NCBI RefSeq assembly: GCF_041886205.1
Contig: NZ_CP169029.1
Strand: one strand, 5' to 3'
Source of the DNA: Escherichia coli
GTDB taxonomy: Bacteria; Pseudomonadota; Gammaproteobacteria; Enterobacterales; Enterobacteriaceae
Length of the DNA: 64,000 nt
Made by a program: the position numbers and the translations under genes. This document shows positions 1,945 to 46,420 of the stretch, in pieces. The notes under the pieces were generated by a model that worked only from the letters and a program-made list of their open reading frames with translations, did not search any database and was not told the origin of the DNA. The first letter of the stretch is position 1. Each line of letters starts with the position of its first letter.

Positions 1945-1986
1945 GTCATACCACTCGCCTGATTATTTTTAGCTATGTTGGATTTT

Positions 1987-2013
1987 GCCACGGTTTATAC
2001 CGTGGCTTTTTTT
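1987..2013 (+). terminator. rho-independent terminator after allE
   Basis: gccacgg/ccgtggc stem with tttata loop followed by T7 run. Confidence 0.6.
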
Positions 2014-2020
2014 GTAACAT

Positions 2021-13964: not shown

Positions 13965-15074
<1,110 letters not shown>

Positions 15075-15137
15075 TGGGCGGTATTCTGAAACGGCGATTG
15101 TCGTGAGAACAGAATGGTTGCACCAGAATACAGATAT

Positions 15138-15167
15138 AAAAAAACCGACATGACAGTCGGTTTTTTT
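15138..15167. terminator. bidirectional rho-independent terminator (A7-ccgac-atgaca-gtcgg-T7)
   Basis: 5-bp GC-rich stem flanked by A-run and T-run, 64 bp downstream of selU stop. Confidence 0.6.
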
Positions 15168-15226
15168 ATTTTTTCCGCCCAAGACTTGGTGGTTCCGGGC
15201 AGAAATGAAACAGTCCTCATCTAGCA
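15138..15226 (-). ncRNA. putative antisense sRNA (candidate type I antitoxin); ends approximate
   Basis: Minus-strand TTGAAT-17bp-TATAAT promoter (15232-15260), predicted transcript contains UGCUAGAUGAGGACUG complementary to 15397-15412, ends at the bidirectional terminator. Confidence 0.35.
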
Positions 15227-15231
15227 AGTGA

Positions 15232-15260
15232 ATTATAAGTCAGGATGCCTCCATATTCAA
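15232..15260 (-). promoter_or_regulatory. candidate sigma70 promoter for the putative sRNA
   Basis: -35 ttgaat (15255-15260), 17-bp spacer, perfect -10 tataat (15232-15237) on the minus strand. Confidence 0.35.
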
Positions 15261-15376
15261 ACAGCTATGTTGGCGATACAATCCCGACGCTAGTAGTGAT
15301 ACTGCCTCAAGGGATTACCGCAGTGCGGAAAAGTACTTTTAAGTCCTGGTCAGGATACAGGTGGTGCTGATTCTGG

Positions 15377-15385
15377 TGCTCTAAT
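15377..15385 (+). promoter_or_regulatory. candidate extended -10 promoter for the small-peptide mRNA
   Basis: tgctctaat resembles TGnTATAAT; -35 is poor. Confidence 0.25.
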
Positions 15386-15485
15386 TTGGAGAGAGGCAGT
15401 CCTCATCTAGCACATGAAGAAAATCATAGTTACAGGCAACGTAAGGGTAAGCTGTGATTGTCTTTCTCCCTTAAGGGAGCAACGG

Positions 15486-15569
15486 ATGAAAACTTTTCTC
15501 GATAAAGTTCTCATCGTTCTTAAGGCGCTAATCGCGCTGCTGGAACTGATCCGTCAGTTTATTGAATAA
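15486..15569 (+). CDS. 27-aa hydrophobic peptide MKTFLDKVLIVLKALIALLELIRQFIE, DinQ/TisB-like candidate type I toxin
   Basis: ATG preceded by aagggag SD 7 nt upstream; single amphipathic helix; own hairpin terminator; in-frame upstream ATG at 15414 would give 51 aa. Confidence 0.5.
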   Translation: MKTFLDKVLIVLKALIALLELIRQFIE

Positions 15570-15587
15570 CTGAGGAAACGTAGCTAA

Positions 15588-15615
15588 GGCCGAAGGTTTA
15601 CCACCTTCGGTCTTT
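15588..15615 (+). terminator. hairpin terminator after the small ORF
   Basis: ccgaaggt-ttacc-accttcgg stem-loop followed by TCTTT. Confidence 0.5.
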
Positions 15616-15670
15616 AAAAAAACCGACATGACAGTTGGTTTCATATTTATTGCCAAAATGCACACTGTTC

Positions 15671-15771
<101 letters not shown>

Positions 15772-27237: not shown

Positions 27238-29742
27238 ATGTCACAAACTATCGACCTGACCCTGGACGGCCTGTCCTGCGGTCACTGCGTTAAACGCGTG
27301 AAAGAAAGTCTTGAACAGCGTCCGGATGTTGAGCAGGCGGATGTGTCTATCACTGAAGCGCACGTTACCGGGACTGCCAGTGCAGAACAGCTGATCGAAA
27401 CCATCAAACAAGCGGGTTATGACGCATCTGTAAGCCACCCAAAGGCTAAACCGCTGGCGGAGTCATCAATCCCGTCGGAAGCACTGACAGCGGTTTCTGA
27501 GGCGCTTCCGGCAGCGACCGCCGATGACGATGACAGCCAGCAGTTGCTGCTGAGCGGCATGAGCTGCGCCAGCTGTGTCACCCGCGTACAAAATGCGTTG
27601 CAAAGCGTACCGGGCGTCACTCAGGCACGGGTAAACCTGGCGGAGCGTACTGCGCTGGTGATGGGCAGTGCCTCCCCACAAGATTTAGTGCAGGCGGTGG
27701 AAAAAGCGGGCTACGGTGCGGAAGCGATTGAAGATGACGCTAAACGCCGCGAGCGCCAGCAAGAAACCGCCGTAGCTACGATGAAGCGCTTCCGCTGGCA
27801 GGCAATTGTTGCACTGGCTGTGGGTATCCCGGTAATGGTCTGGGGGATGATCGGCGATAACATGATGGTCACCGCTGACAACCGCAGCTTGTGGTTAGTT
27901 ATCGGCCTGATAACCCTGGCAGTGATGGTTTTCGCCGGCGGCCATTTTTACCGCAGTGCATGGAAAAGCCTGCTGAACGGTGCAGCGACGATGGATACGC
28001 TGGTGGCGCTGGGAACGGGTGTGGCGTGGCTCTATTCGATGAGCGTCAACCTGTGGCCGCAGTGGTTCCCGATGGAAGCGCGGCATCTTTACTATGAAGC
28101 CAGTGCGATGATTATCGGTCTGATTAATCTCGGCCATATGCTGGAAGCGCGCGCACGTCAGCGTTCTTCTAAGGCGCTGGAGAAATTACTCGATTTAACC
28201 CCACCGACGGCGCGAGTGGTCACCGCAGAGGGTGAAAAAAGCGTGCCGCTGGCGGAAGTTCAGCCAGGGATGTTACTGCGCCTGACGACCGGCGATCGCG
28301 TGCCGGTAGATGGCGAGATTACCCAGGGCGAAGCATGGCTGGATGAAGCGATGCTGACGGGCGAACCAATCCCACAGCAAAAAGGCGAAGGCGAAAGCGT
28401 CCATGCCGGGACAGTGGTACAGGACGGCAGTGTGCTGTTTCGTGCCAGTGCGGTTGGCAGCCATACCACGCTGTCACGGATCATTCGCATGGTGCGCCAG
28501 GCCCAGAGCAGCAAGCCAGAAATCGGTCAGCTGGCGGATAAAATCTCAGCCGTATTTGTACCTGTGGTGGTGGTGATTGCGCTGGTCAGTGCGGCAATCT
28601 GGTACTTCTTTGGTCCGGCACCGCAAATTGTTTATACCCTGGTGATTGCCACCACGGTACTGATTATCGCCTGTCCGTGTGCGCTGGGGCTGGCGACGCC
28701 GATGTCGATTATTTCCGGCGTCGGGCGGGCGGCTGAGTTTGGCGTGCTGGTGCGGGACGCCGACGCGCTGCAACGCGCCAGTACACTCGATACCGTCGTG
28801 TTCGATAAAACCGGGACGCTGACCGAAGGGAAGCCGCAGGTTGTCGCAGTGAAAACGTTTGCTGATGTTGATGAAGCGCAGGCATTGCGTCTGGCGGCGG
28901 CACTGGAGCAAGGTTCCAGCCATCCGCTGGCACGGGCGATCCTCGATAAAGCAGGTGATATGCAGCTGCCGCAGGTCAACGGTTTCCGCACATTGCGCGG
29001 GCTGGGCGTGAGCGGTGAAGCTGAAGGTCATGCGTTATTGCTGGGCAATCAGGCGCTGTTAAATGAGCAACAGGTTGGTACCAAAGCTATCGAAGCGGAG
29101 ATTACTGCTCAGGCATCGCAAGGAGCAACGCCTGTGCTGCTGGCGATTGACGGGAAAGCAATAGCCCTGCTGGCTGTACGCGATCCGTTGCGTAGTGATA
29201 GCGTGGCGGCGCTGCAACGCCTGCATAAAGCGGGATATCGTCTGGTGATGTTGACCGGGGATAACCCAACCACCGCCAATGCGATCGCCAAAGAAGCCGG
29301 GATTGATGAGGTGATAGCCGGGGTGCTGCCGGACGGTAAAGCCGAAGCGATCAAACGTCTGCAAAGTGAAGGACGTCAGGTGGCAATGGTGGGCGACGGC
29401 ATTAACGATGCGCCAGCGCTGGCCCAGGCAGATGTCGGCATTGCAATGGGCGGCGGCAGTGATGTTGCCATTGAAACCGCGGCGATTACCCTGATGCGCC
29501 ATAGCCTGATGGGCGTTGCGGATGCGCTCGCTATTTCCCGCGCAACGCTGCGCAACATGAAGCAGAACCTGCTCGGCGCGTTTATCTACAACAGTATCGG
29601 TATTCCGGTCGCCGCCGGTATTTTGTGGCCGTTTACTGGAACACTGCTTAACCCGGTGGTTGCCGGAGCGGCAATGGCGCTCTCGTCGATTACCGTAGTG
29701 AGTAACGCCAACCGGTTGCTGCGGTTTAAACCGAAGGAATAA
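27238..29742 (+). CDS. copA: Cu(I)-exporting P1B-type ATPase
   Basis: Two GMSCxxC metal-binding domains, [16 protein letters not shown] motifs, 834 aa. Confidence 0.95.
27438..27444 (+). promoter_or_regulatory. copA programmed -1 frameshift slippery site
   Basis: CCCAAAG at codons 68-69; -1 frame reads GGC then TAA stop, giving the short CopA(Z) product. Confidence 0.6.
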
Positions 29743-29749
29743 GTACGTC

Positions 29750-30038
<289 letters not shown>

Positions 30039-30536: not shown

Positions 30537-31331
30537 ATGGATCTGTTGTACCGGGTAAAAACGCTTTGGGCCGCGCTGCGCGGTAATCATTACACCTGGC
30601 CTGCCATCGATATCACCCTCCCCGGCAATCGCCATTTTCATCTGATTGGCAGTATTCATATGGGTAGCCACGATATGGCTCCCCTGCCCACCCGTTTGCT
30701 CAAAAAGCTCAAAAACGCCGATGCGCTGATCGTCGAGGCGGATGTTTCCACCAGTGATACGCCTTTTGCTAATTTGCCTGCCTGCGAGGCGCTGGAAGAG
30801 CGCATTAGCGAGGAGCAACTCCAAAACCTGCAGCACATTAGCCAGGAGATGGGCATTTCTCCCTCGCTCTTTTCTACCCAACCGCTGTGGCAAATCGCGA
30901 TGGTTCTTCAGGCGACGCAGGCACAAAAACTGGGGCTGCGGGCAGAATACGGTATCGATTACCAGCTATTGCAGGCGGCGAAGCAACAACATAAACCCGT
31001 GATTGAACTGGAAGGGGCTGAAAACCAGATTGCCATGTTGCTCCAGCTCCCTGACAAAGGACTGGCGCTGCTGGACGATACGCTGACCCACTGGCATACC
31101 AACGCACGGTTGCTGCAACAAATGATGAGCTGGTGGCTGAATGCACCGCCGCAAAATAATGATATAACGCTGCCCAATACGTTCAGTCAGTCGCTGTACG
31201 ATGTGCTGATGCATCAGCGAAATCTCGCCTGGCGGGATAAATTACGCGCCATGCCGCCGGGGCGATATGTGGTCGCGGTCGGTGCACTACACCTGTATGG
31301 AGAAGGGAATTTGCCGCAAATGTTGCGCTAA
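30537..31331 (+). CDS. ybaP: TraB-family protein
   Basis: 264-aa ORF, synteny. Confidence 0.85.
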   Translation: MDLLYRVKTLWAALRGNHYTWPAIDITLPGNRHFHLIGSIHMGSHDMAPLPTRLLKKLKNADALIVEADVSTSDTPFANLPACEALEERISEEQLQNLQHISQEMGISPSLFSTQPLWQIAMVLQATQAQKLGLRAEYGIDYQLLQAAKQQHKPVIELEGAENQIAMLLQLPDKGLALLDDTLTHWHTNARLLQQMMSWWLNAPPQNNDITLPNTFSQSLYDVLMHQRNLAWRDKLRAMPPGRYVVAVGALHLYGEGNLPQMLR

Positions 31332-31413
31332 AAAAATGGCCAATATCGCTATTGGCCCGTCAAAGAGGAATTTCATTTTTTTATTATTATGCCGTCACTT
31401 TAAGCGACGGTGT
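31331..31413 (-). ncRNA. chiX: sRNA ChiX (MicM/SroB)
   Basis: Minus-strand sequence acaccgtcgcttaaagtgacggcataataataaaaaaatgaaattcctctttgacgggccaatagcgatattggcc + U-run matches ChiX from memory; terminator hairpin ggccaata/tattggcc. Confidence 0.85.
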
Positions 31414-31533
31414 AACTCGATTGTCGCTCAATCTCACCATCCTGCCAATACTCTTAGGCAAGATGACTCTTTTTTTGGACCGCCATCAGGCGTATGCTTG
31501 CTTCGTTTTTTTGTTTAAGGCAGGAAAATTACC

Positions 31534-32013
31534 ATGACACCCGCAGTTAAATTACTCGAAAAAAACAAGATTTCGTTTCAAATCCATACCTACGAGCACG
31601 ATCCGGCTGAAATCAATTTTGGCGATGAAGTCGTCAAAAAATTAGGTTTGAATCCGGATCAGGTCTACAAAACGCTGCTGGTGGCAGTGAACGGTGATAT
31701 GAAACACCTTGCCGTGGCCGTTACGCCGGTCGCAGGTCAACTGGATCTTAAAAAAGTAGCAAAAGCGCTGGGTGCCAAGAAAGTTGAGATGGCCGATCCG
31801 ATGGTCGCGCAGCGTTCGACGGGATACCTGGTTGGAGGGATTAGCCCACTGGGGCAGAAAAAACGTCTGCCAACGATTATCGACGCCCCCGCACAAGAAT
31901 TTGCCACTATTTATGTTTCCGGCGGCAAGCGCGGACTGGATATCGAACTGGCGGCAGGCGATCTGGCAAAGATCCTCGATGCCAAATTTGCTGATATCGC
32001 CCGCCGCGATTAA
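31534..32013 (+). CDS. ybaK: Cys-tRNA(Pro) deacylase
   Basis: 159-aa ORF, YbaK-type editing domain. Confidence 0.88.
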
Positions 32014-37088: not shown

Positions 37089-37173
37089 GTAGGCATGATA
37101 AGACGCGCCAGCGTCGCATCAGGCATCGAGAGCCAAATGCCAGATGCGGCGTGAACGCCTTATCTGGCCTACG
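37089..37173. repeat. BIME (REP pair)
   Basis: gtaggcatgataagacgcg...catcaggca and tgccagatgcggcgtgaacgccttatctggcctac. Confidence 0.75.
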
Positions 37174-44488: not shown

Positions 44489-46420
44489 TCAAATGGGGCG
44501 GATACTTTCTTCATCCAGCTCCGCATCGAAAAACCGACGCAGGGTCTGAATATTATTATCCGCAATAATGGACTCGCGCGCCTGCGCAAGTTTTTCTTCG
44601 TATATCGCCTGACGCCACTCCAGCGGCGTACGCACCGCGGGATTATCATCTTCAACGATAGTCAGTTCAACCGTTGAACCTTTTAACATGCTCAACGCTT
44701 CAGCCAGTTTTTGCTGTGCACCGCGGTTGTTCAAATGCCGCTGAGAGGAGCGCAAATGCAGACATACTGCGTTGTCGCTCTCCTCTTTCCAGGCATTTAA
44801 CGCCACCTGTTCGACCAGTTTTGGTAGCGAAAGTTGGCTCACCTGTGCCGCCCACGGGTCGCGCTCAATGGCTTCTGCCGCCAGCTTCGCCGCCAGTTCC
44901 GGCGTTTTTTCATGTTCCAGCGCTTTTTTCAGCGCCTTCGGCGTGGCGACCACTTCTTTTTGCTGCATCACTGGAGTGGTAGCCTTCCAGCGATACGCTT
45001 CTTTTTTGGCTGGCGCTTTTTCCAGCGCCGATGGCACCGGACGCGCCTGAACGCGATCGGTGACCGAAGCCAGTCTTTCCAGCGCAGCGTTATTCACCGG
45101 CCGCGCGCGGGTAGCGGCTGCCGGTTCACTCTTTTTTGCTTTGGTTGCTCCCTGCACGCGCTGCAACTGCTGGCGCGCCGCCAGCACCTGGCTGGTGGTT
45201 TCCGGGAGCGGTACAGTCGGTGCCTGCTGCGGCGCTGATTGCGGTTGCGGCGGCACCTGGGTTGGCGTCATTACTGCCGTTGGCGCGACGGGCGCAAAGG
45301 ACTGGCGTGGCACTTCTGGCTCAGGCAGAGGCATACGTGGATGGAACGCCAGCGCGCGCAGCAGCGTCATCTCAACGCCCATGCGGCGGTCCGGCGCATA
45401 CGGTAATTCTTTGCGACCAATCAACAGCGTCTGATAGTAAAGCTGAATATCCGTCGGCGGTATGGTGCGCGCCAGTTCACGCATCCGCAGCTCAATGGCG
45501 GCCATGTCGTTGCCAAGTGCAGCAGGCGAAAGTTGTACCATCGCAATACGATGCAACAGGCCGAGCATTTCCACCAGCAACGCTTCCCACTCGATACCAC
45601 GGGCAGCGGCTTCATTAATCAGCGCCATTACGCGCTCGCCGTTGGCCTCGACCATCGCTTCAACCAGCGACAGCGCCTGATCGTCATCAAGCGTACCCAG
45701 CATCGCACTGACTGCCTGGGTTGAAACCTGGCCGTCACCGCTGGCAATCGCCTGGTCGGTCAGACTTAAGGCATCTCGCAGGCTGCCTTCAGCGGCGCGC
45801 GCCAGCAATTGCAACGCCCGCGGCTCGTGAGCGATATGTTCTTCGTTGAGGATGTGCTCAAGTTGATGGCGAATTTGCTCGACATCCAGCGCCTTGAGAT
45901 GAAATTGCAAACAGCGCGACAAAATCGTCACCGGCAATTTCTGTGGATCGGTCGTCGCCAGCAGAAACTTAACGTGCTCCGGCGGCTCTTCAAGGGTTTT
46001 TAACAGTGCGTTAAAGCTGTGGCGCGACAGCATATGCACTTCGTCGATCAGATAAACTTTGAAACGACCACGCGCCGGAGCGTACTGGACGTTATCCAGC
46101 AGGTCGCGGGTATCTTCAACTTTGGTGCGCGAGGCGGCGTCGATTTCAATCAGATCGACAAAGCGCCCCTGCTCGATTTCACGACAGTTATCGCACACGC
46201 CGCACGGCGTCGCGGTAATGCCGGTTTCGCAGTTTAGCCCCTTCGCCAGCAGTCGGGCGATAGAGGTTTTTCCGACGCCACGGGTGCCGGAAAAAAGATA
46301 AGCATGATGAATACGCCCTAACGACAAGCCGTTCGCCAGTGCGGTCAGCACATGTTCCTGGCCGACGACGTCAGCAAAGGTTTGTGGGCGCCATTTTCGG
46401 GCTAAGACCTGATAACTCAT
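44489..46420 (-). CDS. dnaX: DNA polymerase III tau/gamma subunits
   Basis: 643-aa ORF with AAA+ Walker A GTRGVGKT. Confidence 0.95.
   Translation of the reverse strand: MSYQVLARKWRPQTFADVVGQEHVLTALANGLSLGRIHHAYLFSGTRGVGKTSIARLLAKGLNCETGITATPCGVCDNCREIEQGRFVDLIEIDAASRTKVEDTRDLLDNVQYAPARGRFKVYLIDEVHMLSRHSFNALLKTLEEPPEHVKFLLATTDPQKLPVTILSRCLQFHLKALDVEQIRHQLEHILNEEHIAHEPRALQLLARAAEGSLRDALSLTDQAIASGDGQVSTQAVSAMLGTLDDDQALSLVEAMVEANGERVMALINEAAARGIEWEALLVEMLGLLHRIAMVQLSPAALGNDMAAIELRMRELARTIPPTDIQLYYQTLLIGRKELPYAPDRRMGVEMTLLRALAFHPRMPLPEPEVPRQSFAPVAPTAVMTPTQVPPQPQSAPQQAPTVPLPETTSQVLAARQQLQRVQGATKAKKSEPAAATRARPVNNAALERLASVTDRVQARPVPSALEKAPAKKEAYRWKATTPVMQQKEVVATPKALKKALEHEKTPELAAKLAAEAIERDPWAAQVSQLSLPKLVEQVALNAWKEESDNAVCLHLRSSQRHLNNRGAQQKLAEALSMLKGSTVELTIVEDDNPAVRTPLEWRQAIYEEKLAQARESIIADNNIQTLRRFFDAELDEESIRPI
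45129..45135 (-). promoter_or_regulatory. dnaX programmed -1 frameshift site (A AAA AAG)
   Basis: Plus-strand cttttttt = minus-strand AAAAAAG; -1 frame reads GAG then UGA. Confidence 0.8.

Follow-up and report, generated by a model that had tools for sequence, protein, structure and literature searches.

The ybaP-ybaK spacer holds an intact chiX gene

Is the 202-bp spacer between ybaP and ybaK empty, or does it contain a gene of its own? We addressed this question in a stretch of 64,000 nt of Escherichia coli DNA (hereafter, the window), for which a first-pass annotation had proposed that the ChiX small RNA (sRNA) is encoded on the minus strand, convergently with ybaP. When the entire window was searched with cmscan against Rfam 15, RF00368 matched at 31330..31413 on the minus strand, with a score far above the chance level (82.1 bits for a gathering threshold of 44; E value, 1.8e-10). 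The match is untruncated and full-length, covering positions 1 to 83 of the 83-position model, and thus includes the interval 31331-31413 for which an Rfam hit had been called for. The family carries the name sroB, and ChiX, RybC, MicM, and SroB are synonyms of one RNA (PMC4098024).

We then compared the window with the curated K-12 record, in which chiX (b4585) is annotated as an ncRNA of 84 nt (507204..507287) between ybaK and ybaP. The window presents the K-12 chiX region as the reverse complement, and its 84-nt chiX matches the K-12 gene at every position (100% identity), as expected if the spacer harbors the known sRNA that had been recognized there. The two also share the ybaK and ybaP neighbors, the orientation, a 2-nt overlap with ybaP, the promoter, the seed, and the terminator. 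In contrast to the gene itself, where we found no difference, the flanking 7 kb are 98.6% identical (97 mismatches; 1.4% differing), and the window therefore comes from an E. coli strain other than K-12. Altogether, we assign 31330..31413 on the minus strand to chiX, an 84-nt trans-acting, Hfq-dependent sRNA with its own sigma-70 promoter and its own intrinsic terminator, with a probability of about 0.97; nothing that we found speaks against this identity. The gene is already known, and the copy in the window is intact and the same as the characterized one, with nothing novel about it. The features of the locus are given below; RNA positions are numbered such that the window coordinate equals 31414 minus the nucleotide number.

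30537..31331, plus strand: ybaP (TraB/GumN family protein), 264 aa, stop codon TAA at 31329-31331; ORF list, K-12 and PGAP annotation
31330..31413, minus strand: chiX (sroB/micM/rybC) sRNA gene, 84 nt, transcription start at 31413, last U of the tail at 31330; RF00368, K-12 identity, Term-seq
31330..31336, minus strand: U7 tail (RNA nt 78-84), end of the intrinsic terminator; sequence, terminator scan, Term-seq
31338..31357, minus strand: terminator stem-loop (RNA nt 57-76), GGCCAAUA-GCGA-UAUUGGCC, an 8-bp GC-rich stem followed by A and U7; terminator scan
31356..31369, minus strand: seed or target-pairing region (RNA nt 45-58), UCCUCUUUGACGGG
31370..31391, minus strand: A/U-rich linker (RNA nt 23-44), single-stranded according to the centroid fold
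31392..31410, minus strand: 5' stem-loop of 8 bp (RNA nt 4-22), CCGUCGCU-UAA-AGUGACGG; minimum free energy fold
31420..31425, minus strand: predicted -10 hexamer of the chiX promoter, GACAAT, separated by 6 nt from the 5' A of the RNA (31413); consensus scan
31443..31448, minus strand: -35 hexamer of the chiX promoter, TTGGCA, predicted function; consensus scan
31534..32013, plus strand: ybaK (Cys-tRNA(Pro) deacylase); ORF list, K-12 annotation

The absence of the sRNA from the ORF track, which had also been pointed out, agrees with current annotation practice, since PGAP-annotated genomes carry ybaP alone under the matching sequence. Automated annotation thus commonly leaves chiX out, and annotating the spacer is of value because the sRNA encoded there ranks among the most abundant sRNAs bound by Hfq in enteric bacteria.

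Promoter and transcript ends

The putative promoter, TTGGCA-17-GACAAT at 31448..31420, is of the sigma-70 type with 9 of 12 consensus matches, and it was the sole promoter-like site within the 450-bp region scanned. GACAAT is aligned across Enterobacteriaceae in the ortholog alignment, and the hexamer pair is identical in 57 of the 115 species among the matches listed. At the other end of the gene, the terminator scan found an 8-bp stem at 31357..31338 followed by A and U7, in line with the intrinsic terminator ascribed to the sRNA at the outset. Term-seq detected a very strong "primary" chiX 3' end at K-12 position 507287 under all three conditions (PMC7815308, supplementary file 1), which corresponds to position 31330 of the window. 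In Salmonella, cDNAs span SroB (84 nt) from the start site to the terminator (PMC2515195). The sequence signals in the window are therefore those of an independent unit of ∼84 nt with its own promoter and a Rho-independent terminator, the ends of which are mapped in K-12 and Salmonella. This mapping concerns identical or near-identical sequence, and transcription in the window strain is predicted from it.

The first-pass annotation had the 3' end meet the ybaP stop codon at 31331. The overlap with the stop codon holds, but both the K-12 annotation and Term-seq put the end at 31330, so the interval proposed earlier was one U short and the RNA covers the last two bases of the stop codon (31330-31331). 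The same 2-nt overlap exists in K-12, where ybaP extends over 507286..508080. chiX lies opposite to both of its neighbors, convergent with ybaP and divergent from ybaK, as in K-12; Salmonella SroB likewise sits between ybaK and ybaP (PMC2515195).

Since the hairpin directly follows the ybaP stop codon and ybaP has no other conserved intrinsic terminator on the plus strand, we considered that the hairpin and A/T run at 31330-31357 could be the terminator of ybaP, or a bidirectional one, with no separate sRNA gene. On the plus strand, however, the hairpin is followed by CGTCAAAGAGG, which is not a T-run, and the terminator scan calls it on the minus strand only. Moreover, 111 of 113 species among the matches listed show nothing terminator-like on the ybaP strand within the part antisense to chiX. 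A promoter lies at the proper distance upstream of chiX on the minus strand, the sRNA model is matched by the whole 84 nt rather than by the hairpin alone, and the very strong 3' end seen by Term-seq is on the chiX strand (PMC7815308). We consider the ybaP terminator reading effectively refuted and give it next to no weight; the hairpin belongs to chiX.

Fold and Hfq-binding elements of the RNA

The chiX RNA folds with −24.1 kcal/mol, compared to −12.85 ± 2.9 kcal/mol for shuffled sequences (z score, −3.88), and only 1 of 200 shuffles was as stable. Nucleotides 23 to 56, between the two hairpins, are unpaired in the centroid fold. The linker carries four tandem A-R-N triplets (AAU AAU AAA AAA, nt 26-37), which are presumed to bind the distal face of Hfq, and the proximal face presumably contacts the U7 tail. 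The U7 tail and the four ARN triplets are the sequence prerequisites of a Class II Hfq-dependent sRNA, the class to which ChiX was assigned on account of its use of both the proximal and the distal faces (bioRxiv 10.1101/2021.05.11.443692). CyaR, McaS, and MgrR belong to the same class and share the ARN motifs, the U-rich tail, and both Hfq faces with ChiX (bioRxiv 10.1101/2021.05.11.443692), but their sequences, targets, and regulation are unrelated. Unlike these three, ChiX is constitutive and controlled mainly by decoy or sponge RNAs, not at the promoter.

Distribution, synteny, and covariation

chiX is present as a single copy in 5,422 of 5,426 complete E. coli genomes; 5,011 have it at ≥99% identity, which means identical over the 84 nt, and 411 have 1 to 4 differences. 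Four complete genomes gave no match, and two of the 5,422 matches are on plasmid-labelled records. An ortholog scan with the exact pattern AAATTCCTCTTTGACNGGCC, taking one genome per species, recovered at least 120 loci in species-representative genomes of Enterobacterales. The genera comprise Escherichia, Citrobacter, Enterobacter, Klebsiella, Kluyvera, Serratia, Yersinia, Rahnella, Pantoea, Erwinia, Hafnia, and Proteus. We discarded the match in a "Lindowbacteria" MAG (L062), which has the 19-base pattern only, with neither hairpin, U-tail, ybaP, nor ybaK, as an expected chance match.

Among the matches listed, 117 loci with sufficient flank yielded 103 distinct 84-mers. RNA nucleotides 41 to 60 are invariant in these sequences because the search pattern imposes it, and this invariance is thus not independent evidence for seed conservation. 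A ybaP homolog lies convergently downstream in 107 of the 108 loci with room for it, and 98 of 100 loci have a ybaK homolog upstream (both among the matches listed). The end-to-end spacing of chiX and ybaP seen in E. coli recurs in at least 42 loci of other genera, and gaps of 8 to 238 nt separate the two genes in Serratia, Yersinia, Pantoea, and Rahnella.

Alignment of the 103 orthologs with MAFFT followed by RNAalifold recovered the terminator helix alone. The 5' hairpin was missed because of indels and of full sequence turnover outside Enterobacteriaceae, and we therefore assessed it by per-sequence folding and by a pair count on the named structure. Folded individually, all 103 orthologs have a 5' hairpin beside an AU-rich linker (mean z score, −2.56; z < −1 in 91%). 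The sequence of this hairpin in other genera differs from that of E. coli, and the stems are wholly different between orthologs, for example, CCGUCGC/GUGACGG, CCGAAGG/CCUUCGG, and CCAGCAA/UUGCUGG. In the pair count, 86.7% of the cells were paired, versus 78.4% in shuffles (reached by 0 of 500) and 24 to 44% with slid partners, and changes on both sides of a pair occurred in 134 cells for 53 expected from shuffles (0 of 500). Compensatory changes were found in 7 of 14 pairs, namely, 5 of the 6 tested pairs of the 5' stem-loop and 2 pairs of the terminator. Helix 1 appears just 68% paired in this count because the rows from outside Enterobacteriaceae are misaligned, and 98.7% of the terminator cells are paired across the 103 orthologs. 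The 5' hairpin, the unpaired middle part, and the terminator hairpin thus make up a conserved structure.

The same comparison bears on whether the region instead codes for a small protein. Candidate ORFs exist mechanically, on the plus strand at 31267..31518 (83 aa) and 31352..31537 (61 aa), and on the sense strand from an AUG at RNA nt 38 (MKFLFDGPIAILAIF...). Of the 115 species among the matches listed, 74 have one uninterrupted sense frame through the 84-nt core, a count that cannot discriminate because windows this short are often open. On the other hand, the sense frame has no stop codon before the end of the transcript, and its AUG is preceded by an A-run and lacks a Shine-Dalgarno sequence. 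The ATG is kept in 74 of the 115 species and absent from 41 (among the matches listed), reading AAC in Pantoea and Erwinia and AAG in Serratia. Indels between orthologs in the linker and the 5' hairpin are not multiples of three and would break a conserved frame on either strand, and the variation consists of compensatory base pair changes and is not codon-like. Because the ATG is not conserved, the sense frame lacks both a stop codon and a Shine-Dalgarno sequence, and the indels are frame-breaking, we rejected coding, which we regard as extremely improbable, and retained the assignment to a noncoding RNA, chiX.

Pairing of the seed with known targets

We then analyzed the ability of the window copy to pair with published targets. 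The chiP leader, the chbB-chbC spacer, and the dpiB leader were taken from K-12, as the window strain's own loci lie outside the window. CGUCAAAGAG is the seed stretch whose complement is expected in the chiP leader and the chbBC spacer. RNAduplex runs with the full-length sRNA gave unrealistically long duplexes that opened both hairpins, with weak z scores for chiP and dpiB. Because these runs unfold both hairpins, pairing was limited to the unstructured nt 23-58, and each energy was compared to those of 500 shuffles of the target. With K-12 chiP, nt 45-56 form a perfect Watson-Crick run of 12 nt (CGUCAAAGAGGA; −21.0 kcal/mol) located 8 to 19 nt upstream of the AUG, which covers the Shine-Dalgarno region in the K-12 sequence. 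Nucleotides 47-58 form a perfect 12-nt run with the K-12 chbB-chbC spacer (CCCGUCAAAGAG), and the adjacent UUAUUUCAU extends this duplex to −28.1 kcal/mol (z score, −7.8). The K-12 dpiB leader pairs with nt 46-57, again through a perfect 12-nt run (CCGUCAAAGAGG; −22.0 kcal/mol). None of the three energies was reached by any of the 500 shuffles. The window copy thus has a single-stranded seed complementary to the ribosome-binding site of chiP (ybfM) and to the chbB-chbC decoy of K-12, and with it the sequence prerequisite of the published mechanism. The chiP 5' untranslated region of K-12 (locus L002, 2237-2334, outside the window) is annotated as the sRNA ChiZ (b4808), and the ChiX site lies inside it.

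dpiB was included as a target on the strength of our 12-nt pairing test and of the regulation of DpiA-DpiB by RybC, which PMC7602753 cites from Mandin and Gottesman (2009). The other functions are documented more extensively. ChiX, which is expressed constitutively, is a strong repressor of chiP, in that deletion of chiX lifts a chiP reporter 30- to 74-fold, and its overproduction titrates Hfq from other sRNAs (bioRxiv 10.1101/2021.05.11.443692). In Salmonella, SroB (84 nt) was enriched 57-fold by coimmunoprecipitation with Hfq and ranked among the most abundant Hfq-bound RNAs (PMC2515195). Without chitosugars, the chitoporin mRNA is bound and repressed by ChiX; in the presence of chitobiose, ChbR induces chb, pairing with the chbBC spacer then causes ChiX to decay, and chiP is derepressed (PMC4098024). 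ChiZ, an RNA from the chiP 5' untranslated region, sponges ChiX, and Rho is involved in the regulation of chiP (PMC7815308). ChiX is thus already published as an RNA that gates chitosugar uptake, as a classic sRNA controlled by an mRNA decoy, and as an Hfq competitor.

Transposed to the window strain, this mechanism would proceed as follows. Hfq would hold ChiX with the U-tail on its proximal face and the ARN motifs on its distal face, and pairing with the chiP 5' untranslated region would block translation, promote decay of the mRNA, and increase the Rho-dependent regulation of chiP, so that the chitoporin would be silent in the absence of chitosugars. Once induced, the chbBC spacer RNA would act as a decoy that triggers ChiX decay and frees chiP, and ChiZ may serve as a further sponge of ChiX.

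The orthologs of Salmonella (SroB/ChiX) and Proteus mirabilis (MicM) have the same seed, AAAUUCCUCUUUGAC, the same terminator, and the same order of 5' hairpin, AU-rich linker, and seed (PMC2515195; PMC4355480). They also operate in the same chiP(ImpR)/chbBC decoy circuit (PMC2515195; PMC4355480), which in P. mirabilis affects carbapenem susceptibility (PMC4355480). In contrast to the E. coli gene, Proteus micM adjoins copA and is not located between ybaK and ybaP (PMC4355480; our synteny analysis).

Possible interplay of chiX with ybaP and ybaK

We also weighed whether the locus acts in cis in addition to its role in trans. Either chiX read-through would be antisense to the 3' end of ybaP, or an mRNA reading through from ybaP to ybaK would contain a perfect 84-nt complement of ChiX, with mutual antisense or transcriptional interference in both cases. 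The end of the RNA within the ybaP stop codon and the same spacing in at least 42 loci of other genera are compatible with this idea. Besides, the Term-seq table has an entry for a 3' end antisense to ybaP, at position 507468 (+) of K-12 and thus 181 nt past the chiX terminator (PMC7815308, supplementary file 2); this position, at about 31149 of the window on the chiX strand, suggests some chiX read-through antisense into ybaP.

We also searched the plus strand from 31332 to 31533 for a conserved intrinsic terminator of ybaP and found none, neither between ybaP and the chiX-antisense segment nor beyond; a weak site at 31487-31510 occurs in 13 of 113 species among the matches listed and is probably not a conserved terminator. 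Since ybaP has no conserved terminator, its transcripts may run antisense through chiX towards ybaK. However, no experiment in the literature that we searched ties ChiX to the expression of ybaP or ybaK. Serratia, Yersinia, Pantoea, and Rahnella do not have the overlap (gaps of 8 to 238 nt), which is not conserved outside Enterobacteriaceae, and the Proteus gene is located elsewhere while its chiP/chb circuit still works (PMC4355480). The arrangement is therefore not required for function. We regard a cis effect as unlikely, and mutual regulation between chiX and the ybaP-ybaK transcript as slightly more doubtful still, for instance, with ybaP read-through acting as a ChiX sponge or chiX read-through dampening ybaP. 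If true, such cis regulation would give a textbook sRNA a second, so far undescribed layer of regulation.

E. coli, E. albertii, and Citrobacter share the conserved block CAGGCGTATGCTTG (31487-31500, plus strand) upstream of ybaK, from which Enterobacter and Klebsiella deviate at one or two positions. From its sequence, the block may contain the -10 element (TATGCT) of a candidate ybaK promoter.

Other features of the window

The Rfam scan returned further matches at or above the gathering threshold, as follows.

1951-2017, minus strand: STnc480, 87.6 bits
2043-2085, minus strand: ES036, 38.1 bits, barely over the gathering threshold
45092-45156, minus strand: DnaX programmed-frameshift element, 96.8 bits
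62736-62832, minus strand: 4.5S/SRP RNA, 68.1 bits

Three naRNA4 matches (REP/BIME-type palindromic repeats) were found, on both strands, at 29854-29931, 29955-30032, and 37092-37169, the first two being in tandem between copA and ybaQ. For copA itself (27238-29742, plus strand), the K-12 record gives a second, joined product, namely, the soluble Cu(+) chaperone that the 5' portion of the gene encodes, and this 5' region is present in the window.

The canonical dinQ/agrB site is arsR-gor. The window has an AgrB match at 15136-15224 (minus strand; 53.6 bits for a gathering threshold of 40) that adjoins mnmH, and in genomes identical at this match, PGAP gives "dinQ damage-inducible type I toxin." The whole 1-kb segment from 14700 to 15700 is present in 1,319 of the 5,426 complete E. 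coli genomes. The region at 15136-15224 resembles an additional type I toxin-antitoxin locus of the dinQ/agrB-like kind, which varies in its presence between genomes and lies apart from the canonical site.
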